Position numbers and translations under genes: made by a program
The notes under the pieces: generated by a model
What the model was told of the DNA's origin: nothing
Database searches by the model: none
What the model saw: only the letters and a program-made list of their open reading frames with translations
NCBI GenBank assembly: GCA_012646845.1
Contig: GCA_012646845.1_4707.1
Length of the DNA: 48,431 nucleotides
Reading direction: 5' to 3' (one strand)
Source: a phage
Shown here: one piece after another, positions 10,991-31,174 of the stretch
Position numbering within the stretch: position 1 is the stretch's first letter
Layout: each line of letters starts with the position of its first letter

Positions 10991-10991
10991 A

Positions 10992-11501: not shown

Positions 11502-11517
11502 TGCAGCGGTAACATAA

Positions 11518-11549
11518 CCCTCCTCCAACCCGTAAGGGAAGGAGGAGGG
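11518..11549. terminator. hairpin CCCTCCTCC...GGAGGAGGG with nested CCC-GTAA-GGG, between convergent genes
   Basis: perfect 9-bp inverted repeat read directly. Confidence 0.5.
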
Positions 11550-11566
11550 CTTATGCTGTTATGCTA

Positions 11567-11941: not shown

Positions 11942-11950
11942 GCGTTACCC

Positions 11951-12520: not shown

Positions 12521-12541
12521 GTAGACACCACCTCCAACGTG

Positions 12542-15154
12542 TTATACGTCCGGCGTAAAATCAAAAGGAACGTCCGTACGAATGATATCATAACGTTTTC
12601 CTAAGAAATAGAACTCTTCGGGAACCAGACCGGGAACGATGCTATCGCCGATGAACTGTGGGTATGCCCAGATGTACTGAGTGAGTCCTTCGAACATATC
12701 CAGGTTATTTGCGTGGTTACCCATGATACGTTTCCAGAGTTCGCGTTTATACGGTGTTTTAACATCGAACCCATAAAGCGGTGCGAGGTCTTCACCAGGA
12801 ACAAATCCCAGGTAATAGTGGATCTGACTAACCGGGAAACCAAGCGTATCTCGCGGAATGGTGATCGCTTGCTCAGCCTTGGTGACATGCGTCTCAATAA
12901 TCCAGTCGTAGCACTCCGAATAGAACCGATCGAATTTCTCTGGATTATACCACGCTTTGGGAAGATTCAGTTTCTCCGTGAACGCGTTCGACATGATCGT
13001 CGGCAAGAACGGAAGAACGCCGGTTTTGATCTGTGTGTATTTCGATTTTACCCGATTGACTAGATTCCAGCAACTGTATCCTAATTGATCGTTGCAGAAC
13101 TCAACGTAGAGATCGTAATCCCCACCCGATAATGGATTATTAATATCGCCGATGTCTGCCGCATATTTGTTGGGGTATCGGTTATTGAAAGCCAGTTTGG
13201 TTTGGTAATCGTAAATGCACGGTTTATTGTTCTTCGTGTTAATCCACCACCAGGGTTCACCCACCTGCACACAAATGTCTTGGACATGCGGGTAGATGAT
13301 ATCAGCAAACGCGGTTAACACATCCCCTAACCACGCCATCGCGTGTTGGTTGCATGGCGACAACAACCAAGACGGCGGCGTATATCCGGTTGCTGCTATG
13401 TTTCCTTCCCAATCCTGCTGCGCCCACTCGAACGGGCATGCCGTACTCATCAATTCGTAACTTAAACTGATTGTAACAGAGAAATGGTGTTTTGCAGCGT
13501 ATGCGGCGAAAGCTTCATGCCATGCGATACAGGGTGGGTTGAGTACATCTGTGGTGTTCACCAGTAACTTACTCGCACTTGGTGTCCAGACAGTATCGTA
13601 GAAATGCGACATTCCAACATAGTGCACTAATTCATCTTGATATCCCGCATAAACCAGGTTCTCAAATACGCGTTCCGGCGTGATATTGTAATGGTCGTCA
13701 TAAGCGGTTATCGCACGAAGCTCGTGTGGTGTACATTGGTGACGATTAACCGTCATTTCCTGATACACCCCATCAATAGGAAGAATCTCGAGGGTTAAAC
13801 AGAGGTCGATCGGTGTTTCCAGGTAGGTCGTTTCTGTAGCACCTTCCTTATAATGTCGAGAACTCATGCTGAACATCAACGACGTGACCGATTCGAGTTC
13901 GATAGGTTCGTCAGCATAGAACCCCGCCATTGCGTCGTTGAAATCGATCGTTACGATTGCGCTTGTACCGTCTTCAGAGACGTCGGTGGCGTATCGGGTT
14001 AATGAGATATACTGACGGCTATCGTCTTTGTGTACGACGGTTAAAACCGGCGGGTTTTCGGTATCTGCAAAGTTCCGCTGGTCACCAGTAAACGTGATCT
14101 TGGCTTTAAAGATCAAACCGAGCAACGACGTCATGGGATCATACGCAACACAACCATGATCTAGCGTATCCGTTGTCCGCCATTCTATCCCTACCAACCC
14201 GTTAGCGGTATGGCATCGCATATACGCATTAAGTGTCATGTCTTCACTGACAACCGCGAAGTTCTCTGTAGATTGACCATTGATAATCCAATACATCGGT
14301 TGCCAGAGGTTACGCGTGCCTTTTGCGTAGCGGTAGGTTGGTGCACCTTTAGGGTTGCCGTTATTGAGATGGAATACAGCCGTACCTTGGTAATGATCGT
14401 TCGTGTTAATCGGAACACTGTACGCGTCGCCGAGGTCCGTACGTTCGACCTTCGTGACAGTTGCGTTTTCAAACAGCCCACGTAGTGTAGGAAGACCAAT
14501 GTCATCAGGCGCGTTTTCTCGGCGAATCGCGTCCGCGATGCGGTGGGCTAGGGCGGGGTAAATGGTCTCACCCTGCTGTAGGTTTGCAAGACCTACAAAG
14601 CGATCGGGGTTGATACCAGCAATCAATAACTCGACATCGCCCTTCGTTCTATCGTCATGGAGGTATTTCAGTCCAGTAAGATCAAGATGTTGAATTAACG
14701 ACAACAGATTGTACTTACGGTTTTCAACAGTCAGTGCAAGATCACCCGCCCAAACCAAACTTCCCTCATCCGCCGTTACTCTAACGGATTGGCGGCCTGT
14801 GGTGGACGTTGTTGTCGTTTTATTTAATTGTCCTTGTAGGAAGTCGGTTGCGAGGTCAAAGGCAACGCCGTAACGGTCAGCGACCGCCTGCATGATTTCA
14901 CGTAACTGGGTATCTTCTTCAATGATGATCTTGACGGGTATTCCCAAGAACGCCTTGGCGAGGTCTCGCTTAACCATCGAGACGAATACGGATTTGTAAT
15001 ATCGGCCTCCATCTTTCCCTTTAAAAAGAATGGAGGTTGTTTCGGGTGACGATAGAACACGTGCAAATACAACATCGTCGAAAGTAAGAGAAAGTCCGTT
15101 TTTCTCGTTGGTTAATCTTAGTATTTCATTTTGCGCGGTTTCATGTAACTTCAT
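12542..15154 (-). CDS. tail fibre/tailspike-like protein with shared N-terminal anchor module
   Basis: 870 aa; N-terminal ~170 aa homologous to 21881..23635, 21196..21723 and 27286..28116 (RDLAKAFLGIP; NKTTTTSTTGRQSV...LTGLKYLHDDRTKG). Confidence 0.7.
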   Translation of the reverse strand: MKLHETAQNEILRLTNEKNGLSLTFDDVVFARVLSSPETTSILFKGKDGGRYYKSVFVSMVKRDLAKAFLGIPVKIIIEEDTQLREIMQAVADRYGVAFDLATDFLQGQLNKTTTTSTTGRQSVRVTADEGSLVWAGDLALTVENRKYNLLSLIQHLDLTGLKYLHDDRTKGDVELLIAGINPDRFVGLANLQQGETIYPALAHRIADAIRRENAPDDIGLPTLRGLFENATVTKVERTDLGDAYSVPINTNDHYQGTAVFHLNNGNPKGAPTYRYAKGTRNLWQPMYWIINGQSTENFAVVSEDMTLNAYMRCHTANGLVGIEWRTTDTLDHGCVAYDPMTSLLGLIFKAKITFTGDQRNFADTENPPVLTVVHKDDSRQYISLTRYATDVSEDGTSAIVTIDFNDAMAGFYADEPIELESVTSLMFSMSSRHYKEGATETTYLETPIDLCLTLEILPIDGVYQEMTVNRHQCTPHELRAITAYDDHYNITPERVFENLVYAGYQDELVHYVGMSHFYDTVWTPSASKLLVNTTDVLNPPCIAWHEAFAAYAAKHHFSVTISLSYELMSTACPFEWAQQDWEGNIAATGYTPPSWLLSPCNQHAMAWLGDVLTAFADIIYPHVQDICVQVGEPWWWINTKNNKPCIYDYQTKLAFNNRYPNKYAADIGDINNPLSGGDYDLYVEFCNDQLGYSCWNLVNRVKSKYTQIKTGVLPFLPTIMSNAFTEKLNLPKAWYNPEKFDRFYSECYDWIIETHVTKAEQAITIPRDTLGFPVSQIHYYLGFVPGEDLAPLYGFDVKTPYKRELWKRIMGNHANNLDMFEGLTQYIWAYPQFIGDSIVPGLVPEEFYFLGKRYDIIRTDVPFDFTPDV

Positions 15155-15176
15155 TGAAAACCTCAGCCCTTTAGAA

Positions 15177-15818
15177 TTAGATGTACTGCTTACCGCCCAC
15201 GAAGGAAGTTAGCCAGTTCCCACTGACAAGCTGTGATACCCAGCCAGGCACTGCCCTGCCATTCTGGCTCATGACATTACCACACCAGCCAGGGAATCCG
15301 GGACGGATATAATAGAAAGTTAAATTGTAGAGATGGCAATTCCATACCGCAACGTTATGTTTACCAGAAACCGCTTTAAAGACAAACGCAACGGGTAAAG
15401 GCGACGATAACAATTCGGTCACAGGGACGGCCGACCAGTTCGCATTCGCATTCCATGGTTGCCAGGTATGGCTACGCGAGTCGCAAAATACGTTACCGTT
15501 GTTACCGCGCCCACCCGCATGCCACCACAGCGACGGACTCATGTTCTTAAGTGAGGTAAATTGCTGTGGTGGAATATTAGGAATAATAACAGGGTTGGTA
15601 CCTTGCCCATGTTTCTTTTCTTTTGCGTTTACATACCCACTTATCGATTCGAGGTATTTGACACCAGGATAATTGTTCTGGACTTGTGTCGCAATATCAC
15701 GGACATCAAACGTCCAGCAGATCATGGTGTTGTAGTAAGCATCGGTGTTGTCGTACCAAGCGTTACCATCTTGTAAACGTGCGCCACTATTCGGTGTTTT
15801 ATCTGTGCTTATAGCCAT
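15177..15818 (-). CDS. hypothetical protein, paralogue sharing C-terminal module with 15925..16590
   Basis: C-terminus GFPGWCGNVMSQNGRAVPGWVSQLVSGNWLTSFVGGKQY nearly identical to neighbour; ~100-bp near-identical DNA. Confidence 0.65.
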   Translation of the reverse strand: MAISTDKTPNSGARLQDGNAWYDNTDAYYNTMICWTFDVRDIATQVQNNYPGVKYLESISGYVNAKEKKHGQGTNPVIIPNIPPQQFTSLKNMSPSLWWHAGGRGNNGNVFCDSRSHTWQPWNANANWSAVPVTELLSSPLPVAFVFKAVSGKHNVAVWNCHLYNLTFYYIRPGFPGWCGNVMSQNGRAVPGWVSQLVSGNWLTSFVGGKQYI

Positions 15819-15924
15819 GTTATTGTCCTATACTACGATGATTGAGATATCGAATGTCGGACGCTTGGTGCCGTCTGGTAGTACATACAGAAACACCCAC
15901 AGATAAAACAATAACTCCCATCAA

Positions 15925-16590
15925 TTAAATTGATGTTAGATACTGCTTACCTCCGACAAACGATGTCAACCAGTTCCCACTGACAAGCTGTGATACCCAG
16001 CCAGGCACTGCCCTGCCATTCTGGCTCATCACGTTACCGGCCCATCCCGGAAAACCAGGTCGGAAAATATATACTTGAATATGTGTTAAAGCGTTATCAT
16101 TACCTCCACCAACAGCAACATTACGACGTCCGGATGATGGGAAATATTCTTTTAAGAACAGGGGATCGTTTGCCAATAAAGAAGCAGGCCAAGGATTAGC
16201 GGATGCGTCAACATCGAATTCGGTCCATCGCCATTTGCGCCCAGTATCGAACCAGGTTGACGTACCACCGCCACGCACCGCAAGATTGCGTGCGTCACGG
16301 GCACTGTATATTGATTCGATGTTGCGCCACCCACCTTTTGCGACGTTTGCCGCATAGCAAATCGCATTACCACCATTCTTCTTTTCGTAAACGGTTCGTT
16401 TGATATGAACACGGTCGATAAACGCTTCACCGTATTTGTTGACGAGTGTTTGCGCGATATCACGAAGATCGTGCATATGAAAGGCGATGTCTTCGTTGTG
16501 GAACCACGTTGTCGGGTTCCAAACGGTGCCGTTTGGTTCGGCACACATCGATCTGATGTTGTTGCGTTGATTAATCGCGATAAAGCCCAT
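15925..16590 (-). CDS. hypothetical protein, paralogue of 15177..15818
   Basis: start set to ATG 16590 (GAGGTGGACC SD), aligns with N-terminus of paralogue. Confidence 0.6.
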   Translation of the reverse strand: MGFIAINQRNNIRSMCAEPNGTVWNPTTWFHNEDIAFHMHDLRDIAQTLVNKYGEAFIDRVHIKRTVYEKKNGGNAICYAANVAKGGWRNIESIYSARDARNLAVRGGGTSTWFDTGRKWRWTEFDVDASANPWPASLLANDPLFLKEYFPSSGRRNVAVGGGNDNALTHIQVYIFRPGFPGWAGNVMSQNGRAVPGWVSQLVSGNWLTSFVGGKQYLTSI

Positions 16591-16653
16591 GGTCCACCTC
16601 GTTCCTGTTCTCGAAGGAAATTTCATACGATGACGCCATAACAGCTCCCCCAT

Positions 16654-16695
16654 CCTCCCTTCCCTTACGGGTTGGGAGGATGTAAGGGAAGGAGG
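16654..16695 (-). terminator. long hairpin CCTCCCTTCCCTTAC...GTAAGGGAAGGAGG downstream of lipoprotein gene
   Basis: ~14-bp inverted repeat read directly. Confidence 0.5.
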
Positions 16696-16705
16696 AACTA
16701 CTTAA

Positions 16706-17209
16706 TTACTCGCTGACAACCTCAACGGAATTGGGATCGGCGATCAGCGCACGGTCGGTAGAACAATTGAAGAAGACCATGCCAACACCATCGCCGTTCG
16801 AGTTCAGGGTTGAACTTACGTAAGACAATGCTGGTTTATTCATACGGTAGAAGCGTTCGTTGGTGGTGGTATTGAACCCCAGATCAACGTAGTCTTTCAC
16901 CGTGGTGTACAACTGTGTGGACTCGAAAACGGTTACCGGAGAGTCAACGGTAAACTGACTACCTTCGTCCACTACCAGAACTTTATCGTTCCAGATTTCA
17001 GTGGTTGAGAACTTCGGTTTCCAGTGTTCGAATTCCTGGGTTGCTCCCCAGCAGGAATACACAGCGAGATCGCTGTTCTTCTCAACAGGTTTTAACCCCA
17101 CCAGTTGTGTCAGACCTTTATCCAGATTCGGTAAGCCTTCCAGTGTAGCACACCCACCCAGAGAAAGTACCATCAACATACCGAGAATAATCGCGCAAAG
17201 TTTCTTCAT
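16706..17209 (-). CDS. lipoprotein (signal peptide with lipobox LGGC)
   Basis: MKKLCAIILGMLMVLSLGGCATLEG; AAGGAAA SD. Confidence 0.75.
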   Translation of the reverse strand: MKKLCAIILGMLMVLSLGGCATLEGLPNLDKGLTQLVGLKPVEKNSDLAVYSCWGATQEFEHWKPKFSTTEIWNDKVLVVDEGSQFTVDSPVTVFESTQLYTTVKDYVDLGFNTTTNERFYRMNKPALSYVSSTLNSNGDGVGMVFFNCSTDRALIADPNSVEVVSE

Positions 17210-17253
17210 CGTCGGATTTCCTTATGTGTTAACGGAAGTGATTTCCATAGTAA

Positions 17254-17670
17254 TTACACAGTTTTAGGAAATTCCGGCCAATCGATATTTGGCGCGGCGT
17301 CGGTATCGATAGCCGTCACCTCGTCAATGTAATCCAAAACAGCATTAAGTTGGGCTGTTTCTTCCGGAGTCAGTTTTCGCCCGGCCCGTAATTTTAACTG
17401 AATAAGATCAATGGAAGCCAGCGCAGAGTCAATCAGAGATTTTTTCATCTGTTCTGCCTCGGCGACGAGATCTTCGTGTTGCCGCTCGGGTTCCGGAGGT
17501 GCGGTAAACTCACCATTTGAGTATAACCAACCTATTCCGGGCGACACAGCTCCCGTATCGCTAATGCCGACCAACTGTTGATTGTCAGATACATTGAGTT
17601 CTGCTTCGCCATCGTAAACGATCGTGTTTACTACCACCCCATTTTCAATAACAGCGTATGATGTACTCAT
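17254..17670 (-). CDS. tfa: tail fibre assembly chaperone (lambda Tfa-like)
   Basis: C-terminus AEAEQMKKSL...LDYIDEVTAIDTDAAPNIDWPEFP matches lambda Tfa C-terminal domain; ATG overlaps fibre stop (TAATG). Confidence 0.8.
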   Translation of the reverse strand: MSTSYAVIENGVVVNTIVYDGEAELNVSDNQQLVGISDTGAVSPGIGWLYSNGEFTAPPEPERQHEDLVAEAEQMKKSLIDSALASIDLIQLKLRAGRKLTPEETAQLNAVLDYIDEVTAIDTDAAPNIDWPEFPKTV

Positions 17671-20600
17671 TACATAAACTCCTCGATGATGCAAATCCCG
17701 TCAGCGCCACGCCCACCACGCATAACGGTTCCAGTGTAACCGTTATCGTAAGCGCCGCCACCGCCCGAACCTCGTGCGAGGCCGTTTGACCCGCCACCAA
17801 CAGCTGCGCGACCACCGCCACCCCAATATGACGCACCCCCACCACCACATACAGGAAATGCGCCAGCTTGACCGTCATCACCATCACCACCTGAAATGCG
17901 TATATCCCCGGTACTAGGTGTACCACCACCCCCACCACCAGTGTTTGTGACGGTTGTTTTTCCTGCGCCTTGCCCACCGGGAGCAGTTAGTAGGGATGCA
18001 AATTTACTATCCCCGCCCCTGTTTCCAATTGTTGCCCCGGAACCACCAGTGCCACCAGAACCAATTACGACAGAATAACTAGTAGCTGTTACCGCTATAA
18101 CCGAAATTACTGTTCCACCGGCCCCACCGCCAGCACCAAAAAACGTTTCGCTGTTGGAAAAAGCCTGGCAACCACCGCCGCCGCCTCCACCACCGGTTAA
18201 TATTACTCTAATCCGTTTTGTTCCTTGTGTTGGGGTGTACGTCCCTGACGATGTGAAAACACGCGTATTCAGTAAACGTCCGACATATCCGCTAGAATCG
18301 GCTAAACCAAGATCTTTAGCTGCTAACGTTATATTAGCTGTACCGTCAAACGGTTTACCGTTAATCGTGCGCGCGGTCTGCAACTTCGTGGCCGTTGCTG
18401 CGTTTCCTGACGTATTCTGGTTTCCCGCGGCGTTAACACCTGGTAGATTGATGTTCGCACTACCGTCGAAAGATACCCCACCAATGGTGCGGGCTGTTTT
18501 CAGTTTTGTCGCCGTGGCAGCATTACCGGTTGTGTCTTGGTTACCGGTGGTGTTTACCCCAGGCAGGTTGATATTGGCTGTTCCGTTAAATGAAACACCG
18601 CCAATCGTCCTTGCTGTTTGCAGCCTCGTTGCGGTTGCTGCGTTCCCCGTGGTGTTTTGGTTACCCGTTGCATTCACGCCCGGGATACTATCCTTAGATG
18701 TGTAGATCTGTGCCCATTCCGACCAGTTAGAATCGGCTGCATCACGACGTGAACGTAAATAAGCCGGAGCGTGTGTGCCCGAGGTACCTGACCAACCAAT
18801 GAGGATTTCACCTTCACCGGCCGATGAAGCACCTTTGAGGTGAATAACGTTACCATAGGCGGTTGGGTAGCCGTTACTGTACGCTTCATACATCTGGATA
18901 CCGGTATTACTACCTTGGGTCGCATTAGCTAACGCGGTAACACGACCTTTGGAGGCGAGAGCGGTAATACTGAAGCTAATGTCCTTAGTACCGTCAAAGG
19001 CGACCCCATTAATCTTCCGTGCTGTTTGGAGTTTCGTGGCAGTAGCCGCGTTACCAGAGGTACTCTGATTACCTGCTTTGTTCACGCCAGGCAAATCAAT
19101 GTTGGCTGTTCCATCAAAGGACACACCCCCTATGGTTCTCGCTGTCTGGAGTTTTGTTGCTGAGCCAGCGTTTCCGGAAGTACTTTGATTACCTGCCGCG
19201 TTGACGCCCGGTAGGTTAATGCTAGCAGAACCATCAAAAGAAACTCCACCTATCGTGATCGGTGTTTTCAATTTCGTGGCTGTCGCAGCGTTACCGGTTG
19301 TATTTTGATTGCCTGTCGCATTAACGCCCGGTAATGCAATATCCGCTGTTCCGTCAAAGGCAACGCCGCCGATTTTACGGGCGGTTTGTAGCTTGGTTGC
19401 ACTAGCAGCGTTACCACTGGTATTCTGGGTGCCAGCTTTGTTAACACCCGGGAGATCGATGTTAGCAGAACCATCGAAGCTGACGCCACCTATCGTTCTT
19501 GCAGTAGCGAGTTTAGCTGCTGTGGCTGCATTGTTACCCACTTTCAGCCAATCATCCCATGGACCATCCTGGCCGTTCCACGATGCCGTTAAACTACGTA
19601 CGTAAATATTGCCAGTACGTACAGTGTAACGTTGCGTTCCACCGAATTGTCCAGCAGGGAGCACTTCAAGGTAACCTGCGGCATTTGCTTCAGGGAAATT
19701 GTGGGCGACGTCCGCATTCGTCGTTATTGGTTTAGACCAAATACCCACAGACGCTTCAACCGGACCGTAAGTATTCAGATTTGCGTCGGTGGGGAGCTGT
19801 CCTCGAAAACGTTGGAATTGTGTCGCCGATAACCCCAACGTTGTTTGCATGCTTTCAATGCTGGATTGCTGAAGTAACGTCCGTGCTGTCGACGTAATCA
19901 CGGTAAGCGCAACTTTATTAACACCGGTGAAATACGGGAGTTTGTCTGCTGATGTCGCTAAACCTGAAAAGGCGGTCAGTAATGCGTTAAGGGGCTGCTT
20001 CCCAGCTAACGCATTTGTTACCGTCGTTGCGAAATTAGGATCGCTTCCTATAGCTCGAGCCAGCTTATTAAGCGTATTTAGCGTCGCTGGTGACGAGTCG
20101 ATCAGCGCCGTGATCGCACGCATCACAAATTCCGTGTTGGCTATCTGTCGACTGCTATTGTTAACTGCTGCGGTGGGCGCTGCTGGCGTACCAGTGAATA
20201 CAGGGCTATTAAGATCCGCCTTGAGGGCGATGAGACGTTTAAGCGCTTCAACATCAACTTTCAGGTTTTCCCATCCGATGAGAGAACCACCACTGCTGGC
20301 ATGGTAACGGTTGTACCAGAAGTCACCGTTAACGCCTAAAAAGAATATTCCCTTCTCTTCGTTTTGTGGACCGGAACTATTTCGTGACGAGCTGATGTAA
20401 TTGATTTCAATAAGACCAGTAAACGTCACTCCTGGGATTATTTTGTTGTCTCCAGCTGACTGTGATACTTGGTAAATCCCCGGGGTTGCGGCTTTAACCC
20501 ATGTTAAGAATTCTGTTACTCCAGCGGTACCGCTAAAATTCTTAACGTCGGTAAGTATCGCCCCATAACCGAACATACCGGGTAGAGCCACTCGTCCGCT

Positions 20601-21188
20601 GGTACGGTCACGAATATCTGTCGCAACAACAGGCAATTGTTTACGAACGGCATTAACCGCTTTAGGCGTGGCCGATTTTGTCTCGTCATCGCTATCGGTT
20701 TCATTACTTAGAATAGTTAAACCGCGTGTAGCAGTAGTTGCATCAGGAAGAAATGCGTTATCCAACACCTTAAGCTGTATTGCACTCGTATTACTAACAA
20801 CGACATGCACCTGACAGTTAAGAACGCTGGTTGCGCCTTCGGCAGGCGTAGGCTTATATCTTTCTGGTGCACTGCAGACGGCAATCAGAACACCTTTATC
20901 GTCGTACAGACCGATCTCACGTACCCAGAACCCACCTTGACCAGCAGGAATAATACCCTCAACGACAATCCTGGTTGTACTATCGCCATCCGCATGGATA
21001 TTAGAAACTTCCCCACGATAAACTTCGTGAACAAGTGCTGTTTGGCTGGCGGTCGGGGTTGGTGTCGAGCCGTTACCATCACCAACGGCAAAGTGTGTGA
21101 TTTTTAGTTTCTCACCGTCGGGAAGTAACGCAGCGGTGATACGTTCTGCTCCTTTATCGGTAACTACCGTTTTATATGCTGTACTCAT
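17670..21188 (-). CDS. long tail fibre protein: P2 gpH-like N-terminus, two blocks of ~38-aa fibre repeats, Gly-rich C-terminal tip
   Basis: N-term MSTAYKTVVTDKGAERITAA...HFAVGDGNG; repeats GNAATATKLxTARTIGGVSFDGxANIxLPGVN; C-terminal poly-Gly motifs; start set to ATG 21188. Confidence 0.85.
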   Translation of the reverse strand: MSTAYKTVVTDKGAERITAALLPDGEKLKITHFAVGDGNGSTPTPTASQTALVHEVYRGEVSNIHADGDSTTRIVVEGIIPAGQGGFWVREIGLYDDKGVLIAVCSAPERYKPTPAEGATSVLNCQVHVVVSNTSAIQLKVLDNAFLPDATTATRGLTILSNETDSDDETKSATPKAVNAVRKQLPVVATDIRDRTSGRVALPGMFGYGAILTDVKNFSGTAGVTEFLTWVKAATPGIYQVSQSAGDNKIIPGVTFTGLIEINYISSSRNSSGPQNEEKGIFFLGVNGDFWYNRYHASSGGSLIGWENLKVDVEALKRLIALKADLNSPVFTGTPAAPTAAVNNSSRQIANTEFVMRAITALIDSSPATLNTLNKLARAIGSDPNFATTVTNALAGKQPLNALLTAFSGLATSADKLPYFTGVNKVALTVITSTARTLLQQSSIESMQTTLGLSATQFQRFRGQLPTDANLNTYGPVEASVGIWSKPITTNADVAHNFPEANAAGYLEVLPAGQFGGTQRYTVRTGNIYVRSLTASWNGQDGPWDDWLKVGNNAATAAKLATARTIGGVSFDGSANIDLPGVNKAGTQNTSGNAASATKLQTARKIGGVAFDGTADIALPGVNATGNQNTTGNAATATKLKTPITIGGVSFDGSASINLPGVNAAGNQSTSGNAGSATKLQTARTIGGVSFDGTANIDLPGVNKAGNQSTSGNAATATKLQTARKINGVAFDGTKDISFSITALASKGRVTALANATQGSNTGIQMYEAYSNGYPTAYGNVIHLKGASSAGEGEILIGWSGTSGTHAPAYLRSRRDAADSNWSEWAQIYTSKDSIPGVNATGNQNTTGNAATATRLQTARTIGGVSFNGTANINLPGVNTTGNQDTTGNAATATKLKTARTIGGVSFDGSANINLPGVNAAGNQNTSGNAATATKLQTARTINGKPFDGTANITLAAKDLGLADSSGYVGRLLNTRVFTSSGTYTPTQGTKRIRVILTGGGGGGGGCQAFSNSETFFGAGGGAGGTVISVIAVTATSYSVVIGSGGTGGSGATIGNRGGDSKFASLLTAPGGQGAGKTTVTNTGGGGGGTPSTGDIRISGGDGDDGQAGAFPVCGGGGASYWGGGGRAAVGGGSNGLARGSGGGGAYDNGYTGTVMRGGRGADGICIIEEFM
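18290..18700 (-). repeat. coding tandem repeats (~114 bp) within tail fibre gene, block 2
   Basis: imperfect direct repeats visible in DNA and protein. Confidence 0.6.
18950..19520 (-). repeat. coding tandem repeats (~114 bp) within tail fibre gene, block 1
   Basis: imperfect direct repeats visible in DNA and protein. Confidence 0.6.
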
Positions 21189-21195
21189 GGTGTTT

Positions 21196-21723
21196 TTATC
21201 CTGGATAAATAGTGATGATATCACCAATGACCGTTGTGGCACCGGCGTAAAGATGAGCCGGAGATACATCGTGTTGGTTTGTCACGGTAAGATCTAATCG
21301 ACCACGCCAAACCATGGAGGTATTCGCGATGGGGATAGAAATCTTTTTGGATATATCGTCACGAAAATCAATAACAGTGGCAAGGGTAACTGCATCAAAG
21401 TCAACGTCGGGATCAAAGACGAACCCGTATTGATCTGAAATCGCCCGAATAATCGCGTGTATAGTTGTTGTCTTAACAGACTCTAAAACGATTTTTATTG
21501 GTATTCCTAGAAATGCCTTCGCAATATCGCGTCGAGCGTAAACGATAAAACTTTCACCGTTCCACCTTGTTCCTTCATTTGCTGTGACGATCACTTTTGC
21601 CCTGTTAGCACCAGAACTTCCATCCAAGACTAATGTAAGATCGGAGCTGTTGAATACGCTACTGTTACGTCTGTTTATCAACGACGTCAGTTCGTCTTTC
21701 CATGGCGGGTAAAGTGAACACAT
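21196..21723 (-). CDS. short protein consisting of the shared fibre N-terminal module
   Basis: YARRDIAKAFLGIPIKIV; start set to ATG 21723 (GGAGGAGGG SD). Confidence 0.65.
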   Translation of the reverse strand: MCSLYPPWKDELTSLINRRNSSVFNSSDLTLVLDGSSGANRAKVIVTANEGTRWNGESFIVYARRDIAKAFLGIPIKIVLESVKTTTIHAIIRAISDQYGFVFDPDVDFDAVTLATVIDFRDDISKKISIPIANTSMVWRGRLDLTVTNQHDVSPAHLYAGATTVIGDIITIYPG

Positions 21724-21836
21724 ATGTGCACCCTCCTCCAACATAACCAGATTAATTATAAATTTCTTAAACGTGGAACACGATTCGAGATAAACGTAAA
21801 CGGTCTTAACGACCGCATAAAATTCCGCGCATATTA

Positions 21837-21868
21837 CCCCTCTATCCCGACAAAGCGAGATAGAGGGG
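21837..21868 (-). terminator. hairpin CCCCTCTATC...GATAGAGGGG downstream of 21881..23635
   Basis: perfect 10-bp inverted repeat. Confidence 0.5.
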
Positions 21869-21880
21869 AGGATAATACGA

Positions 21881-23635
21881 TTATGCTGCTACATATCCAG
21901 GCCAACGTTCTCTTGGCCAGTTTGTTGCGCCCTGTCCAACGTTGTCCTTACCAGAAGTTACGTTACTCACATCCCATCCACTCAGATCCTGATTGAACGC
22001 GGTGTTTTCGCGCATCATGAGATCGATCTTACGTAGCGAACGGGTATTCCAGCCGGAAATGTCTTGGTTGAATGCCGTATTGTAGGCAAACATGTTAGAC
22101 ACGCTTTGTAATTTTGAGGTGTTCCAACCACTGATGTCGCTATTGAACGACATACTTGAGAACATGCTGCTCGCATCAACAAGACTGTCAGTTTTCCAAT
22201 TAACCAGTTTATCACCATCAAGTGCATCGCTGCTGCTGAACATAAAACTCATGTCGTTAACTTTGGACACATCCCATTTATCCAACCCGTTACCCACGAA
22301 CGCAGGACAGGACGAGAACATATAACTCATATTAGTAACCCGACTCACATTCCATTTACTGAAGTCGAGGTTAAGTTTCTGACACCCTAAGAAGGTTTTA
22401 CACATGTTGGTGATACGACTAACATCCCACTCTTGGATGTTGGGGTCGTTAAGCGTCGTTAAATAGTTGAACAATGTCGCTAACGACGTCCATTTCTCTG
22501 GAATCCGGTTTGGTACCGTACGAAGCGATGCGAGGTTGTTGGTTGACGGAGAGCAGAACATACCGTTATCCCAATTTACGATCTCCGTAATTTTGGACCC
22601 TTTGATCGTCTGAGTGACGTTACCATCTTTCACCATACCTGTAGCGACGATGGTATATTCACCAGTGTCCGCATAATCGTGGGTGTAGGAGTTGTTGCTT
22701 GAGGTCTCCGTTACTTTATTCCCATCACCCCAATCGATATTGACCTTATCCCATCCACCTAGGTAGAACTGTACTTTGCCTCCGGTGGCTTTTAGGATAT
22801 ATTTACCCCCATTGTCGGTATAATAACAGACAACCATTGAACCGTACAGATTACCTATCTGCCAATCATCCTTTTGCGATATTGCGATTTGCGCCGCACC
22901 ACGCTGTACGAAGAGTACCGTACGATTCTCGGCAGTCTGTAATGTGGTTATTGCCTGAGCTTTATCGTCCTCGCTAATTTCACCAGATCCCACCAAAGCG
23001 CTTAACATCCTTTCGAAGTATTCGATCGGTAACTCAGCTCCAACAGACTTATCAACAGACTGTACAGCAAGATCGCCCAATGCTGCAGTGGTAGCCAACG
23101 CCAATGAACCCTTGGTCATATCTGTTTCTTGGATGTAATGCAGTCCCGTAAGCTGGTACGCTTGAATAATAGTAATCAGGTTCAGCGTATCGTTAACGAC
23201 CTGTACCTGTAAATGCCCGGACCATACATAGCTGCTTTCAGCAATCGGTAGCTCGACCGATTGAATACCTGATGTTTCAAAGGTGATCTTCTTATTAAGA
23301 TCGGTTTCCAGGAAATCAACCGCGAGGTCGAAATTCATGCCGTACTTTTCAGCGATGGAATCTACGATATTCTTGAAAGCAACATCTGTGCTTACGATAA
23401 AACGTAACGGAATTCCCGTAAACGCTTTAGCGATGTCTCGACGAACATACGTAAGCGATTGTTCGAAGAAATAGGGACTGTTATCTCCAGGCTTGATGGT
23501 TACCTGACACGCTTCAGGATATTCAGCTGGGATGAACGATTCGAATTTAACGTCGGATTCCTTCAACGAAAGCTTGTTATTCCGGTTCACTAACGCCAGA
23601 AGATCGGCTTTCCATCCGGGGTAAACTGTAGACAT
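21881..23635 (-). CDS. tailspike/fibre-like protein: shared N-terminal module plus C-terminal DUF285-type repeats
   Basis: N-term YVRRDIAKAFTGIP; C-terminal repeats WDVSRITNMCKTF / WNVSRVTNMSYMFSSC / WDVSKVNDMSFMFSSS / WNTSKLQSVSNMFAYNTAFNQDISGWNT. Confidence 0.7.
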   Translation of the reverse strand: MSTVYPGWKADLLALVNRNNKLSLKESDVKFESFIPAEYPEACQVTIKPGDNSPYFFEQSLTYVRRDIAKAFTGIPLRFIVSTDVAFKNIVDSIAEKYGMNFDLAVDFLETDLNKKITFETSGIQSVELPIAESSYVWSGHLQVQVVNDTLNLITIIQAYQLTGLHYIQETDMTKGSLALATTAALGDLAVQSVDKSVGAELPIEYFERMLSALVGSGEISEDDKAQAITTLQTAENRTVLFVQRGAAQIAISQKDDWQIGNLYGSMVVCYYTDNGGKYILKATGGKVQFYLGGWDKVNIDWGDGNKVTETSSNNSYTHDYADTGEYTIVATGMVKDGNVTQTIKGSKITEIVNWDNGMFCSPSTNNLASLRTVPNRIPEKWTSLATLFNYLTTLNDPNIQEWDVSRITNMCKTFLGCQKLNLDFSKWNVSRVTNMSYMFSSCPAFVGNGLDKWDVSKVNDMSFMFSSSDALDGDKLVNWKTDSLVDASSMFSSMSFNSDISGWNTSKLQSVSNMFAYNTAFNQDISGWNTRSLRKIDLMMRENTAFNQDLSGWDVSNVTSGKDNVGQGATNWPRERWPGYVAA

Positions 23636-23652
23636 AAGCACTCCAAAGTTCA

Positions 23653-23669
23653 TGGGGCGGTAACCGCCC
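23653..23669 (-). other. short perfect hairpin GGGGCGG-TAA-CCGCCCC between large structural gene and downstream fibre gene
   Basis: read directly; lies just upstream of the start region of gene 21881..23635. Confidence 0.4.
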
Positions 23670-23675
23670 CGTTGG

Positions 23676-26600
23676 TTAAATTGTTGGTTTAATATCGCGT
23701 AATAGGGCGATATAATAGCCTAATCCTCGGAGGATCTCCCCGCTCCAGAAACCAAAATACATTCCGTCTCTGCCGAGATTAGCACTATCTGGTGCAGGAC
23801 TCCACCCACCATTCATTGCGTCATCAACGGTGTAACGGTTTATGTAGTTCTCAACGATCTCGTTATAAACATTAACAGCAACAGAATAGCCTTTATCGTT
23901 GGGATGTTCGTACAACATCGCTAACGACGCTCCGGCTAACCATAATCCCGCCATGTGACCAGTAAAGTCGTTCGGGATAAAAGCAGGGGGTTTATCCATC
24001 GGAAAATCCGTAGGAGACCGATAGGTGTTTTCCTGTTGATACGTAAACAAGAAATCGATCCAATGACTGATGTAAGTGGATAGCTTCTCAGGGATAGCTA
24101 AACCGCGATCATGCAGTCCTGCATAAAGCCTCACCGCTGAAAAGAAAGCCCTCGGCTGATAACCAGACCATGCTGTCTGATCGCCGAAGTGGTACATCGT
24201 AAAATCATTAACTTTCGATCCGCTTGGCGCATCCCAACGATCCCACACGTACGCACTCGCACCCGGCCCTAAAACCCCGAATTTCTGATAATACCACTGC
24301 TGTGAGTCATACCAGAAATTCACAACATTCCGAATCATGAGGTCACGCCGTTCAGTCGGTACGTCCATATCCAGGAAGACCCATGGATGTTGGTAGCCGG
24401 GATAAGGCTGACCACGCCAACTGTCGAACGTCGGTGCGTTAGGGATATAGTTGTTCGAGAACGGAATAATACCCGGAGTATAAGGTAACGGATCGAGGCG
24501 TTGGTTGACAATCGTGCAATCACCAACCCGTAATGTTCCCTCCGCCTCAAAGGCTGCTTTTAACGTAAACAGCATGGTATATCCGTCATCCGTGGTGTAA
24601 GTTGATGGTGGATTGTTGATGGCGTAAAGCTTAAATACCCCTTCAGCGATATCGCTGTCATCAGGCAAGAACAGAATTTCAGTTGAGCCATCACCCCACA
24701 CAGGTGCAGAAGGTTTAGGGTCAGTATCGGTGTGGTTCGGTTGATACCCTGAGAGCGTCCATCCGGTAGCCGAAAGCGTCAACGTATTTCTTGATGTGGT
24801 GGTCGGTAGCATCTGCCACCATCGCCAACCATTCGCATCTTCGACACGAACGTTGTAGTCAATCGACGCGAAATAACTGACCTGTCTTACGATCTGTTTT
24901 GCTGTTGGATTGAATTCAAATTGTCCGCCTGCCGCAGTAAGCTGCGCTTTTAAGAACAACCCATCCCAGGAATCTTCCGCTGCTTCGCTGAATTCTGTTG
25001 TGATTGCGACATCGTCTTTCCAGCCGACTTTATCAGCCGATATCAACACAGAACCCGTAACAGCATCACCGGTTGGTGTTGAAGCTTCATCGACCGCATC
25101 AGCAGGAATCAATGAGCCTATTTTGAAATCCCATCCTTTCGGTTCAACGCTGGAAGGTAATACCAGCTTATACGTTTTGGCTTTCGCTTCGGTTTTGTCC
25201 AAAGAAAGCGACAATGAGATCTCAACCGGAATTGCTACGCCTGTCGTATCTTTACCCCCGCAGGTTACCCGAAGAATTGAATCACGATTGACGCGGAACG
25301 GAATAGCCTGCTGTTCAAGGTAAATTTGTGCTGAAGATGCTTGAATCACGATCCAGCCATCGGTATCACGTGTGATTGTAAATGGTGCTTTCGATGGGTA
25401 TGTATACGTGTAAGCGATACCGTCGGTGTCGTAACGATCGGTTCCTTTTACCTGACGGAAGAACTTATCGTTGGCGTCGATACGGGTATATTCTTCAATC
25501 GTAAACAAAGATGCCTTGTACGCTTTCTGATAACGCTCCTGCTGCGTTAAACGGTATAAGGTGTAGGCTGATTCACAAAACCACTGTTCAGCGTCTGACG
25601 CGTTTCCCATGTAGTCTCTGGTGACCGGCACCTGGATCGGTCGGTTATGCTGACACTCGTTCGTTTTGATAAGGTATCCGCCATATTCAACAGGAACACG
25701 CGGTGCCCATGCAACCAAGTAAGAACCGTTGACGGATTTATCTTTGAGTACGATGGTACCTACCTCATCGTCAGTACACGCTTCAAGATCGTCCCCGTCA
25801 GCACTTACGTAACGTTTTGTGCGTAACGCAACTTTCTCGATAGGGAACACCGTACCCTTTGTATCCCAGTCAATCGTCCCATCATCATTGGTTTTGAACA
25901 CATCGGCGTTCAAATTCTGCCAGCCGAGTTTACCCTCATAGACCTGAACAACAAGATCCATGTATTCCCCGAATGTTGGTGCCCCATGTGTTATTTTCCC
26001 GATACCGTTGGTGAATGTAACCGCTGTGTCATGGAAACCCCCGTGTGTTGGGTAATCGTCTTTTGCAAGAGGATAATGAGCCAACACCGGTTGCTTACCA
26101 TTAACGATCCAGTTAGCGATCCAGCGTGTCGGTGTATCCGGTGGTTCAAGGCCTGCGTAGAACGCTTTTATATACGCATCGAACGATGCCTCTGCTAATG
26201 TGAGATAATGCGCTTTAAGCTTGGGGTCATCCGTTGTATGACTGAATATACCCGCACCCAGAATTAACAACGACTGTCCTTCTGTTGTTGCGTCACCATC
26301 CGGTTGTGCTTCTTGTCGTGTTGCTGCAATGAAGTGGCGATTGTTTACCATTACCCCGCTTTCATTTAACACGTAATGATCGGTTTCTGGGTCGGTAAAC
26401 GTTCCTGTATTTCGGGTTAAGAAGCTTGCGTGGCCATAACCAACAAAATTAACCGACGACGCTGTAATCATCCATTTACCGATAAGTTGGGCGACATCGT
26501 TATATCGCTCCGATGCGGTGATTTGTTTCACGTACCAATCTTTACGGTTGAATGTCCAAAGCAGGAAGTAATACGTGGCATCGATTTCCATTACCGGAAA

Positions 26601-27272
26601 CGTCGGTGTTAACGGCTCCAGCGTTAAGTAGTTGCTCCAGTCAATCTGTCCACCAACAACCGACGGGGTAATCTCTAATAACTGACACCACTCATAACGG
26701 TCTGGCACACTACTGGACGTTGCTGGTAAAGGTAACTTGTATACGCCAGTACGATTCAGATTGAATGCTTTCCTAGCCGATCCTAAATCAACATAAATAC
26801 CGGATGATACGCTTGCACTAGATGTCTCCAAAGCACCTAGCGTTGACCGATACATTGAGATGAACAGCGTATCTTTCCAGTAAGGGTTGTCCTTGGTTGG
26901 TTCTAGTGCGATTTGTGCGAAGATGCTGTTCTGCGTCCCTAACTGGTATGTTGCATTTAAAGATTCTTCTATGAAATAACTTTCTGCAATCGCCAGATGG
27001 AACTGCTCGTTCAATAACGCGAGTGCCGCTCGACCAGAAACCGCTTCATTGCCGGTTTCTTTTTTCATGATCGCACCGAACGGAAACAGTGTCGCGAATG
27101 ACCGTTTTGGTTTATTAACCGTAACCGTCCCCGTGTAATTTCCAACGCCATCAAGTTTTTGATTATCGCCAACAGCGGTGACTGTGATACCATCAGCCGG
27201 GATATCTGTTTTGTTTAGTACATTGAGTTGGTCGACCAGATCCTGTTTATCGTCAGGTAAGAATGTCGTCAT
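23676..27272 (-). CDS. large structural protein (1198 aa), putative fibre/baseplate-associated
   Basis: ORF track; AAGGCGGAG SD; located inside fibre locus; no catalytic motif recognised. Confidence 0.6.
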   Translation of the reverse strand: MTTFLPDDKQDLVDQLNVLNKTDIPADGITVTAVGDNQKLDGVGNYTGTVTVNKPKRSFATLFPFGAIMKKETGNEAVSGRAALALLNEQFHLAIAESYFIEESLNATYQLGTQNSIFAQIALEPTKDNPYWKDTLFISMYRSTLGALETSSASVSSGIYVDLGSARKAFNLNRTGVYKLPLPATSSSVPDRYEWCQLLEITPSVVGGQIDWSNYLTLEPLTPTFPVMEIDATYYFLLWTFNRKDWYVKQITASERYNDVAQLIGKWMITASSVNFVGYGHASFLTRNTGTFTDPETDHYVLNESGVMVNNRHFIAATRQEAQPDGDATTEGQSLLILGAGIFSHTTDDPKLKAHYLTLAEASFDAYIKAFYAGLEPPDTPTRWIANWIVNGKQPVLAHYPLAKDDYPTHGGFHDTAVTFTNGIGKITHGAPTFGEYMDLVVQVYEGKLGWQNLNADVFKTNDDGTIDWDTKGTVFPIEKVALRTKRYVSADGDDLEACTDDEVGTIVLKDKSVNGSYLVAWAPRVPVEYGGYLIKTNECQHNRPIQVPVTRDYMGNASDAEQWFCESAYTLYRLTQQERYQKAYKASLFTIEEYTRIDANDKFFRQVKGTDRYDTDGIAYTYTYPSKAPFTITRDTDGWIVIQASSAQIYLEQQAIPFRVNRDSILRVTCGGKDTTGVAIPVEISLSLSLDKTEAKAKTYKLVLPSSVEPKGWDFKIGSLIPADAVDEASTPTGDAVTGSVLISADKVGWKDDVAITTEFSEAAEDSWDGLFLKAQLTAAGGQFEFNPTAKQIVRQVSYFASIDYNVRVEDANGWRWWQMLPTTTSRNTLTLSATGWTLSGYQPNHTDTDPKPSAPVWGDGSTEILFLPDDSDIAEGVFKLYAINNPPSTYTTDDGYTMLFTLKAAFEAEGTLRVGDCTIVNQRLDPLPYTPGIIPFSNNYIPNAPTFDSWRGQPYPGYQHPWVFLDMDVPTERRDLMIRNVVNFWYDSQQWYYQKFGVLGPGASAYVWDRWDAPSGSKVNDFTMYHFGDQTAWSGYQPRAFFSAVRLYAGLHDRGLAIPEKLSTYISHWIDFLFTYQQENTYRSPTDFPMDKPPAFIPNDFTGHMAGLWLAGASLAMLYEHPNDKGYSVAVNVYNEIVENYINRYTVDDAMNGGWSPAPDSANLGRDGMYFGFWSGEILRGLGYYIALLRDIKPTI

Positions 27273-27285
27273 TATTTACTCCGCC

Positions 27286-28116
27286 TTAATCGTAACTGAA
27301 ATAAAGTTTGCTGCTGACGCCGCTATCGGAATGAGGTTTTAATACCAGAACAGAGCTTCCGAACGACGGAAGTATCGGAACATTTAAATCGTTTGCGTCG
27401 GCAACTTTTCCATTATAAACGACACTGGCTGTTGTGATGAGTTCCCAAGCTAAGGCATAACTCATTGAAATCAGTGAAGAGGCTAAACGGAACGCACTGT
27501 ATCCTTCAGGAGAATCTCCAACCAACATCGAACGTATCGCATCTTGCGGCGGTAAATTTAGCTTGATGCCGTAGGTGCTGAATGTGTGGAAATCCCCTTG
27601 TTTACTATCTTCCGGATAATAAGAGGTTAGTGGTTCTCGTACCGTAATCAGCTCGCTAATATCAGTACTTACCGCTTTTCGTACGAGGAATTGAAACGTA
27701 CCGTACCACGATGCTGAGGCATCAGAACGAATAGGAACAGATACGGTTTTCTCGTCACTTTCAAATTTAATCTGTGATGCTAGCGCTGAAGAATCAAAGA
27801 TCGTTAAATCGATCTTCAACCCATACTTCTTAAACAGCTGCGTTAAGCAGTCTGCTATAGTCGTCATATCAGCAACGACAATAAAAGGTTGGTGTTTGAT
27901 AAAGAGCTTATTAATGTCTCGACGTTGAAGATAAACCTGCACGGGGTCTTCGATATAGTAAGTCGATTGTGATGTGGGGACTATAGAAAGGCGTAACCGA
28001 CCTGATGCACCATACCAGGCTGGCGTTAGCGTAATGTCTGACGGGGATAATGGATGCTGGAGATCGGTGTTTATTTTAGATAACACTTCCTCTTGCCATG
28101 ATGCTTCAGGATACAT
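27286..28116 (-). CDS. protein with diverged copy of the shared fibre N-terminal module
   Basis: YLQRRDINKLFIKHQPFIVV...KKYGLKIDL aligns with RRDIAKAF-GIP module of the other three. Confidence 0.6.
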   Translation of the reverse strand: MYPEASWQEEVLSKINTDLQHPLSPSDITLTPAWYGASGRLRLSIVPTSQSTYYIEDPVQVYLQRRDINKLFIKHQPFIVVADMTTIADCLTQLFKKYGLKIDLTIFDSSALASQIKFESDEKTVSVPIRSDASASWYGTFQFLVRKAVSTDISELITVREPLTSYYPEDSKQGDFHTFSTYGIKLNLPPQDAIRSMLVGDSPEGYSAFRLASSLISMSYALAWELITTASVVYNGKVADANDLNVPILPSFGSSVLVLKPHSDSGVSSKLYFSYD

Positions 28117-28175
28117 GCTGACCTCATAGATGATCGTTGATAGGAAAGAGACCTAATTCATACCATGGGAACCTC

Positions 28176-28230
28176 AAAAAAAAAAACAAAAATAGGAAAA
28201 CGGTGCTCATCCTTTTAGGGATGAGCACCG
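28176..28230 (-). terminator. canonical intrinsic terminator: 12-bp perfect stem followed by long U-tract on minus strand
   Basis: CGGTGCTCATCC-TTTTAG-GGATGAGCACCG with A-run 28176-28200 on plus strand. Confidence 0.75.
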
Positions 28231-28250
28231 CGTACCATTATATCGAATGA

Positions 28251-29575: not shown

Positions 29576-29751
29576 TTTCTATTCCTCAAACAAAAAGATT
29601 GTCTTTTACGCGACATGATTACAAGTACACAGGTTACTGAATTTCTGTAAAAGTTAATTTTCGTAAACTAAAAGAAAATGTATCCGTGTTTCCTGGTTCT
29701 TCCCCTCCACAGCCTCAGGAAGAGAAGAACCGTTTGCTAAGTTGTTATGTA

Positions 29752-31148: not shown

Positions 31149-31174
31149 AACAGTCGCTCTCGTTTCAGGGGGAG

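Follow-up and report, generated by a model that had tools for sequence, protein, structure and literature searches.

In the branched tailspike systems of phages (CBA120 TSP1-4, G7C gp63.1/gp66, phi92, and K1-5/SP6), conserved N-terminal anchors carry exchangeable distal domains that broaden the host range, and the trimeric tailspikes are joined via T4 gp10-like or T7 gp17-like anchor domains. Little is understood of how the nucleus-forming jumbo phages locate their hosts, and these phages are candidates for phage therapy. Here, we examine a 48,431-nucleotide (nt) stretch of phage DNA (NCBI GenBank assembly GCA_012646845.1, contig GCA_012646845.1_4707.1; this whole stretch is called the window below), in which a locus of ten genes between positions 12542 and 28116, all on the minus strand, encodes five proteins that begin with the same N-terminal module, DUF7941, and differ in what follows it. 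The likeness to the branched tailspike systems lies in the presence of several receptor-binding proteins, each with a conserved anchor and an exchangeable distal domain. The differences are that Pfam and PHROG scans of the ten locus proteins revealed no T4 gp10-like or T7 gp17-like anchor domain, that the DUF7941 fold is unrelated to these anchors (its only solved match is entry 9XQD, discussed below), and that the arrangement proposed for it is a serial polymerization and not a branching.

DUF7941 proteins have been described in the jumbo phage Goslar by a preprint of April 2026 that names ten of them, including gp86, gp91, gp92, gp93, and gp161 (bioRxiv 10.64898/2026.04.21.720040; hereafter, the preprint). 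Three of these (gp86, gp92, and gp161) carry carbohydrate-binding, glycoside-hydrolase, or leucine-rich repeat (LRR) domains, for which a function in host recognition was suggested. The same authors reported that purified gp22 forms filaments in negative stain, that AlphaFold 3 yields head-to-tail dimers in which the linker and the C-terminal domain bind to the next protomer's N-terminal domain, and that a dimer of gp126 and gp127 of phage phiKZ can be fitted, again head-to-tail, into unexplained baseplate density beside gp127; they proposed a 'fibre cloud' anchored at six peripheral sites of the baseplate. The modeled part of gp127 in the phiKZ structure is its N-terminal domain, residues 1–150 (the preprint), and in this baseplate a band of gp139 dimers crosses the platform and comes to an end at gp127, with one gp127 per star lobe (PMC13250141). 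Mass spectrometry of Goslar virions (Table S4 of the preprint) gave about 4.5 copies per virion of gp86, 1.2 of gp91, 4.9 of gp92, and 4.8 of gp93, together with about 111 copies of gp161, 580 of gp22, and 2,140 of gp23, and the DUF7941 proteins add up to more than 2,500 per virion; contracted tail sheaths were also reported for this phage.

The core of our finding is real and largely known, as it is already described in the preprint for Goslar orthologues that are 92–97% identical to the proteins of the window. What is new here is that members of the family are gained, lost, and paired among related phages, that payloads have been borrowed from N4-like and other phages, and that Goslar itself is without one of the members. 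These additions (an extra paralogue, a deletion in Goslar, the cassette behavior of the locus, and the pairing of a 276-amino acid [aa] protein with one of 1198 aa) are incremental. Taken together with the published work, the DUF7941 module appears to be a general-purpose handle by which interchangeable host-recognition domains are attached to the periphery of the baseplate.

The DUF7941 Module and Its Five Carriers

A megablast search with positions 12000–30000 of the window returned a sole match, Escherichia phage vB_EcoM_Goslar, at 92.7% identity over half of the query. Finer blastn comparison revealed a series of collinear blocks, conserved at 88–94% nucleotide identity and broken by few insertions or deletions. 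Judged by this collinearity, the window phage is a Goslar-like chimallivirus of E. coli, that is, a nucleus-forming jumbo phage of the phiKZ-like kind, and its DUF7941 genes are thus those of a chimallivirus. In the order of transcription, the locus encodes a 276-aa protein (gp93 of Goslar), a 1198-aa protein (gp92), a 584-aa protein that has no Goslar counterpart at this place, a 175-aa protein (gp91), and a tail fiber (gp90), followed by a chaperone (gp89), a 167-aa protein (gp88), a 242-aa protein without a Goslar counterpart, a 213-aa protein (gp87), and an 870-aa protein (gp86). Four of the five DUF7941 genes are direct orthologues of Goslar genes, found in the same order and position (amino acid identity 92% for gp93, 96% for gp92, 93% for gp91, and 97% for gp86), and their domain architectures and Pfam family match as well; Goslar differs in having neither the 584-aa gene at this locus nor the 242-aa gene, and in the tip of its fiber.

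A sequence-only reading of the window had singled out four proteins with a common N-terminus, and their open reading frames (ORFs) are indeed present on the minus strand where it placed them: 27286..28116 (276 aa), 21881..23635 (584 aa), 21196..21723 (175 aa), and 12542..15154 (870 aa). The start codons it had chosen are favored by a GGAG or GGAGG Shine–Dalgarno sequence, which can be read upstream of each; the homologues of the 584-aa protein are mostly of this same length, and Goslar gp91 is a gene of 528 nt. The four N-termini are homologous. Five of the six pairwise BLASTP comparisons score 48–125 bits over 142–254 residues (the weakest pair, the 276-aa and 870-aa proteins, reaches 25 bits), and all four proteins pass the gathering cut-off (27 bits) of the Pfam family PF25613, or DUF7941, with 141.9 bits (E = 3.7e-41) for the 870-aa protein, 83.3 bits (E = 2.7e-23) for the 584-aa protein, 56.7 bits (E = 3.5e-15) for the 175-aa protein, and 37.8 bits (E = 2e-9) for the 276-aa protein. 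The objection that such similarity might be confined to low-complexity sequence fails, because the HMMER bias amounts to only 0.1–1.4 bits and the invariant residues (N16, R66, D67, K70, F72, Y98, G99, D103, F107, L112, S134, W137, and G139) are spread across the whole domain.

The extent of the shared region had been put at about 150 aa, a figure that describes the 175-aa protein, where coverage by the family profile is only 1–148, and not the three others, where it is 1–279 (870 aa), 1–268 (584 aa), and 3–280 (276 aa). The region common to these three is about 270 aa long and consists of an N-terminal domain, a linker, and a C-terminal domain. The PF25613 model, of 276 positions, is covered nearly whole by the 870-aa protein (2–275), and the BLASTP alignment of the 584-aa and 870-aa proteins reaches approximately residue 256. 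Since the module extends to about residue 279, the remainder of the 870-aa protein is some 590 aa and not the 700-aa domain that had been claimed. The core motif RRDIAKAF[LT]GIP, also part of the original description, is exact in only two of the proteins and is replaced by KRDLAKAFLGIP in the 870-aa protein and by RRDINKLFIKHQP in the 276-aa protein.

Four, moreover, was too low a count. When a profile of 150 family representatives was used in a six-frame scan of the whole window, a fifth copy was found in residues 1–135 (nt 26868–27272) of the 1198-aa protein (23676..27272, minus strand), at 27.4 bits and E = 6.6e-8, the next-best segment of the window in the same scan having E = 1.4. This larger profile was needed, as a profile made from the four window proteins alone does not detect the N-terminus of the 1198-aa protein, and the protein has no match in Pfam, PF25613 included. 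A search of the PDB sequences with the four-protein profile also gave nothing relevant, its best results (E = 0.075 and 0.57) being chance matches to NS1 and an antibody. In all five locus proteins the module occupies the extreme N-terminus.

This placement is general. A profile search of 1.84 billion representative proteins found 294 family representatives at E ≤ 1e-3, and among the best 150 of these 294, from which the anatomy of the family was counted, 146 carry the module at their extreme N-terminus. By length, 50 of the 150 have at most 210 aa (the N-terminal domain alone), 41 have 211–320 aa (the full module), and 59 are longer and contain other domains, whereas two or three tandem N-terminal domains occur within a single chain in about a dozen. 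The ten longest family representatives include fusions to DUF285 and to LRR_5 domains and several unannotated extensions. Across many phage genera the module is kept, in front of unrelated domains, at only 20–35% identity. The module is almost confined to the chimalliviruses and, on the explanation that we favor, serves both virion attachment and oligomerization.

The connection to the phiKZ baseplate came only from a fold search and from the larger profile, the PDB sequence search with the four-protein profile having yielded chance matches only. In the AlphaFold 2 model of the 276-aa protein, the N-terminal domain (residues ~10–150) has a predicted local distance difference test (pLDDT) score of 71–93, and the remainder is below 50. 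With this model, which represents one of the five locus proteins, the only Foldseek match in the PDB at E ≤ 1e-3 was 9xqd_0 (E = 2.4e-6, probability 1.00, 149 aligned columns, target-normalized template modeling [TM] score 0.52), a chain of 150 residues in entry 9XQD, which is that of the outer peripheral baseplate of phiKZ. The chain fits the N-terminal domain of gp127, an assignment made by its length of 150 residues and by the description in the preprint, not by a chain label. Pairs of cadherin EC1-EC2 domains also appeared as possible relatives, at E = 0.03–0.4, and were judged not significant. In BFVD, all of the matches with a named organism, among the matches listed, come from phiKZ-like jumbo phages. 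At the sequence level, gp127, gp126, and gp143 of phiKZ match the family profile with 56, 45, and 40 bits, and the phiKZ controls gp139, gp130, and gp142 do not match it. The module proteins of the window and of phiKZ share only about 20% sequence identity, and phiKZ has three DUF7941 members where Goslar-like phages have ten or more.

Borrowed Payloads and the Gain and Loss of Members

The non-contractile sheath of the E. coli phage N4 is built of two subunits, gp64 and gp65, of which gp65 is the receptor-binding protein (PMC13434306). It is to these subunits that the payload of the 870-aa protein is related. After the module (aa 2–277, nt 14324–15151) this protein has an NCTSP_N domain (aa 284–462; PF23844, E = 3.6e-11) and an NCTSP TIM barrel (aa 476–837; PF23845, TIM-barrel_NCTSP, E = 4.9e-85), and, among the PDB sequences, its residues 532–789 match N4 gp64 (9lc0_M, also 9yf4/9yf5; E = 1.5e-29) and its residues 482–543 match N4 gp65 (E = 1.3e-7). 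The PF23844 and PF23845 domains of residues 284–837 are thus shared by two phages that both infect E. coli. In N4, however, whose receptors are NfrA or the NGR glycan, they build a sheath of six-fold symmetry that encloses the short, non-contractile tail, whereas in the window the domain is one payload, carried by a DUF7941 module, of a jumbo phage with a contractile tail, and no partner of gp65 length was found for the 870-aa protein (only residues 378–441 of the 1382 residues of gp65 were matched). Because a Goslar-like phage has a contractile tail and such a partner is lacking, the 870-aa protein belongs to the N4-type sheath family at the level of its domains only, and not as a subunit of a sheath or of a gp64–gp65-like heterodimer.

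The 1198-aa protein is composed of the N-terminal domain (aa 1–135), an intermediate region (aa ~136–279), and, from aa 280 to aa 1198, a block of the tail-protein type that is about 915 aa long. In approximately 85 of its 94 homologues this block is a stand-alone tail protein of about 920–1000 aa, encoded by E. coli and Enterobacter prophages, by Salmonella phages, and by a Stenotrophomonas phage; a DUF7941 N-terminus is present in only five of the 94. Three homologues, P0280, P0276, and P0279, match the family profile at 34–56 bits, the highest score being that of P0280; P0155 and P0168, both long representatives of the family, proved on testing not to be homologues of gp92. The protein has no match among the PDB sequences or in NCBIfam. 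The AlphaFold 2 model of the block (mean pLDDT 81.6) gives Foldseek matches to the (alpha/alpha)6 glycoside hydrolases GH48 and GH105 (probability 1.0) and to the carbohydrate-binding modules CBM11 (0.98) and CBM22 (~0.47), and the predicted fold would be that of an (alpha/alpha)6 glycoside-hydrolase-like domain with CBM-like beta-sandwiches, to which no particular family can be assigned. Judged by their homologues, the payloads of the 870-aa and 1198-aa proteins are domains that serve unrelated phages as tail proteins and that have been fused, in this lineage, to a chimallivirus handle.

The gene immediately preceding that of the 1198-aa protein, across a gap of 13 nt, encodes the 276-aa protein, which is DUF7941 from end to end, with its N-terminal domain in aa ~1–150 (nt 27667–28116) followed by the linker and the C-terminal domain. 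The two genes are both present in the window, in Goslar (L001), in the relatives' contigs L004, L005, and L006 (other L-numbers below are likewise contigs of relatives, except L011, which belongs to a bacterial chromosome), and in the divergent L015 (39% and 48% identity), and both are absent from L003, L007, and L008; the copy numbers of Goslar gp93 and gp92 are about equal (4.8 and 4.9). In phiKZ there is a similar succession of a full-module protein of about 280 aa and, at once, a protein with the N-terminal domain only: gp127, of 290 aa, is followed after 8 nt by gp126, of 147 aa. The two cases differ in that gp126 is a bare N-terminal domain, whereas its counterpart in the window adds a payload of about 1,060 aa. 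By analogy, we infer that the 276-aa protein may be a dedicated adaptor that carries the enzyme-like 1198-aa protein as gp127 carries gp126. A strict rule, by which a full-length adaptor always precedes a gp92-like gene, holds in L015 and fails in L013 and L014, and this failure limits any pairing rule to those gp92-type proteins that keep the region of residues 1–280.

The 584-aa protein consists of the module (aa 1 to ~270, nt 22826–23635), a weak PKD/Ig-like stretch (~300–350), and a series of repeats (~375–570) that place it in the BspA-type LRR/DUF285 (PARCEL repeat) family (PF03382, E = 3e-46, 156.5 bits against a cut-off of 25; TIGR02167 of NCBIfam, 73.8 bits against a cut-off of 30). 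By tblastn it is a paralogue of Goslar gp161, with 47% identity over residues 8–446, and gp161 is encoded elsewhere in the Goslar genome, the 584-aa gene being absent from Goslar at this position. Relative to Goslar, window positions 21894–23638 form a clean insertion. The intergenic region between gp91 and gp92 of Goslar (L001 14796–15000) retains the scar of a deletion: ATGAACTTTGGAGTG, the first five codons of the longer form of the ORF, is joined to TAGTAGCATAA, the last three codons and the stop of the 584-aa gene, with 2 nt of microhomology at the junction. Orthologues of the 584-aa protein fall into about fifty clusters at 70–98% identity, many of them on contigs of 235–248 kb, and at least one contig has a gp161-type paralogue as well. 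The scar, the cleanness of the insertion, and the wide distribution of the orthologues lead to the conclusion that Goslar has lost the gene by deletion. If this is true, Goslar is a natural deletion mutant without one repeat-bearing member, and its host-recognition apparatus would under-represent that of its relatives. Among the 584-aa orthologues, conservation is highest in the N-terminal domain (mean pairwise identity 0.88–0.94 vs. 0.65–0.89 for the rest).

Gain and loss are not limited to this one gene. Depending on the relative, there are two, three, four, or five DUF7941 genes at the locus: the 276-, 1198-, 584-, 175-, and 870-aa genes all occur in L004, L005, and L006, with the 870-aa gene called as 801 aa in L004; L007 and L008 are without the 276- and 1198-aa genes; L003 is without the 276-, 1198-, and 870-aa genes; and Goslar is without the 584-aa gene. 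The C-terminus of the tail fiber and the chaperone vary among the relatives too. The locus behaves as a cassette whose genes are gained and lost among related phages.

Two observations concern more distant sequences. In a more distant chimallivirus, five DUF7941 genes (515, 160, 153, 1072, and 1010 aa) follow one another at positions 3446–12340 of the contig (L013, 232,925 bp), and arrays of genes that share the module thus recur outside the Goslar group. In the chromosome of Scandinavium sp. H11S7 (GCA_024764835.1; L011 9563–15405), a phage-derived islet of three genes is bounded by insertion sequence elements, has a GC content of 43.7% as against 54% in its flanks, and sits between the cellulose (bcs) and poly-N-acetylglucosamine (pga) operons. 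The islet encodes part of a gp93-like protein (the half with the linker and the C-terminal domain), a 1512-aa gp92-like protein that is 47.5% identical to residues 1–890 of the 1198-aa protein, and a weak DUF7941-like protein of 289 aa. A bacterial chromosome thus contains a tail cassette of a lytic jumbo phage, and the islet is an exception to the published exclusivity of DUF7941 to the chimalliviruses.

Chains, Docking Sites, and Other Readings of the Module

The reading that we favor, with a probability of roughly 0.6, is that this is a variable host-recognition locus in which the DUF7941 module provides attachment and head-to-tail oligomerization. The N-terminal domain of about 150 aa would be an acceptor with two alternative partners, either the peripheral baseplate, to which phiKZ gp127 is bound where the gp139 band ends, or the linker plus C-terminal domain of a second DUF7941 protein. 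These latter parts would together be the donor that holds the next N-terminal domain, and the outcome would be a set of head-to-tail chains radiating from the baseplate. Proteins with a complete module (276, 870, and 584 aa) could then pass the chain on; those with the N-terminal domain only (175 and 1198 aa) could be held but, as they have no linker and C-terminal domain with which to hold another, would be found at the distal ends. The payload domains would bind or cut the glycans or proteins of the host surface, and their horizontal exchange, and their gain or loss between related phages, would tune the host range. The natural proteins with tandem N-terminal domains lend Rosetta-stone support to such a serial arrangement. 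A more detailed grammar that could be read from the sequence is a tentative and somewhat doubtful extension: full modules would propagate chains, proteins with only the N-terminal domain would end them, the 276-aa protein would present the 1198-aa protein at about six positions per virion, and the 175-aa protein would cap or regulate. For this last protein a role as a cap had been suggested from the outset, and it would fit an anatomy in which the N-terminal domain (aa 1–148) is followed by a tail of 27 aa, and both the linker motif and the C-terminal domain are missing. The comparative additions made here could help in engineering the host range and in choosing constructs for tests of the filament model.

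A number of points weigh against it. Both the donor/acceptor polarity and the terminator rule are extrapolations, based on a single phiKZ pair and on the AlphaFold 3 models of the preprint, whose authors call their own model speculative, saw no DUF7941 density in the peripheral baseplate of Goslar, and demonstrated filaments for gp22 only, a protein encoded outside this locus (bioRxiv 10.64898/2026.04.21.720040). In our AlphaFold 2 model of the 276-aa protein it is the linker and the C-terminal domain that are of low confidence. The hydrolase assignment of the 1198-aa block stands at a Foldseek E of ~1e-3 with low TM-scores, and the pairing of the 276- and 1198-aa genes is not universal, since L013 and L014 have a gp92-like gene with no recognizable full-length DUF7941 gene before it. 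The presence in purified Goslar virions of gp86, gp92, and gp93, at about five copies each, supports a virion location for the window orthologues, yet these numbers would be explained just as well by a single copy at each six-fold site, no chain being required, and gp91 was barely detected (about one copy, two peptides), which means that the 175-aa protein may be no part of the virion. A check of the literature (main text) provided nothing usable on the receptor of Goslar.

The copy numbers are in fact one of the arguments for the arrangement first expected for this locus, in which each protein docks independently on one kind of adaptor site, for example the end of the gp139/gp32 spoke band, and the result is a branched, multivalent apparatus without chains, the 175-aa protein competing for the site or capping it. 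In the solved structure of phiKZ, gp127 makes direct contact with the baseplate through its N-terminal domain, and the gp131-like fiber paralogues of phiKZ, which belong to a different family, share an N-terminus and co-assemble at one site (PMC13250141). We nevertheless consider independent docking rather unlikely. With one gp127 per star lobe there would be six such sites per virion for more than 2,500 DUF7941 copies in Goslar; gp22 polymerizes in vitro; the density beside gp127 accommodates a gp126 bound head-to-tail; natural proteins with two or three tandem N-terminal domains exist; and a pure docking domain would not need the linker and C-terminal domain that three of the five locus proteins keep. 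The published filaments, the AlphaFold 3 dimers, the fitted gp126–gp127 pair, the tandem domains, and the copy numbers together disfavor side-by-side docking at a single common adaptor site, whereas the other half of the sequence-only reading, a virion-attachment module with variable C-termini of the host-recognition type, stands.

Clustered paralogous genes are also what would be expected if the shared N-terminus were a mere remnant of duplication with no common role in assembly, the proteins being, for example, soluble enzymes released by lysis or assembly factors. The near absence of gp91 from virions accords with this, as does the statement of the preprint that the virion preparation also captured non-virion assemblies. 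Such an origin is nonetheless improbable: the module is maintained at the extreme N-terminus, despite an identity of 20–35%, in front of unrelated domains in many phage genera; it is the best conserved part of the 584-aa orthologues; and the same payload blocks occur module-free in other phages, which implies that the module was added to them by fusion. It is more improbable still, to the point that we give it little weight, that the module marks internal proteins of the virion or head which are packaged and ejected. PHROG puts two families, phrog_1037 and phrog_2935, in its category 'head and packaging', with the label 'virion structural protein', and gp22 and gp23 are very abundant in virions, but a PHROG category is an annotation label and not a tested function, the only matching solved structure sits in the baseplate, what is fused to the module are domains of the tail-protein, sheath, and glycan-active kinds, and the genes flank that of a tail fiber.

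Hairpins, Fiber Genes, and Small Proteins of the Locus

Three GC-rich inverted repeats accompany the DUF7941 genes: a hairpin with a 12-bp stem upstream of the 276-aa gene (28201..28230, minus strand), which is the top terminator-like site, a second between the 1198-aa and 584-aa genes (23654–23670), and a third between the 584-aa and 175-aa genes (21837–21868). They may divide the locus into three units, one with the 276- and 1198-aa genes, one with the 584-aa gene, and one with the 175-aa gene, the fiber, the chaperone, and what follows; we infer these boundaries with caution because terminator-like sites in the window as a whole are not in excess over shuffled sequences (19 vs. 16.9). Elsewhere in the window, comparison with Goslar showed that gp96 (166 aa) and gp120 (235 aa) have no counterpart (window 29659–29690 and 40638 vs. 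L001 20990–21495 and 32794–33506) and that a segment has been replaced (window 31033–31197 vs. L001 22845–23348).

In every relative examined the 175-aa gene lies directly upstream of the fiber gene, with a gap of about 7 nt. The tail fiber (17670..21188, minus strand; the gp90 orthologue, with PF12571 at E = 1.2e-41, PF03406, and PF21722) has a tail-collar N-terminus of the P2/Mu/P1 type and a glycine-rich C-terminus that differs among relatives. The mechanically called ORF (17670–21269, minus strand) would overlap the 175-aa gene by 74 nt; the real start is probably the ATG at 21188, 7 nt past the stop of the 175-aa gene, since the tail-collar domain begins at residue 28 and gp90 starts at the equivalent position. 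The fiber gene is followed by that of a tail-fiber assembly chaperone (17254–17670, minus strand; PF02413, E = 2.8e-20). A 183-aa ORF on the plus strand (18154–18705) is antisense to the fiber repeats and is probably not a gene.

Just downstream of the fiber and the chaperone, the 167-aa ORF (16706–17209, minus strand) begins with MKKLCAIILGMLMVLSLGGC, which has the look of a lipoprotein signal peptide with a lipobox, and its product is conserved at 89–95% in all relatives. Its Goslar orthologue, gp88, was estimated at about 737 copies per virion preparation (bioRxiv 10.64898/2026.04.21.720040). It could be a superinfection-exclusion lipoprotein, placed like Llp of T5, a contaminant from vesicles, or a true lipoprotein of the virion.

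The 213-aa (15177–15818) and 242-aa (15925–16653) proteins, both encoded on the minus strand, had no match in Pfam, PHROG, or NCBIfam. They are paralogues with 39% overall identity whose C-terminal ~42 residues are nearly identical (41/42). The 242-aa gene is absent from Goslar, window positions 15870–16587 being an insertion relative to that phage, and the relatives have variants of 220 or 255 aa. From its sequence, this slot looks like a second small exchangeable cassette, in which the common C-terminus would be the shared anchor.

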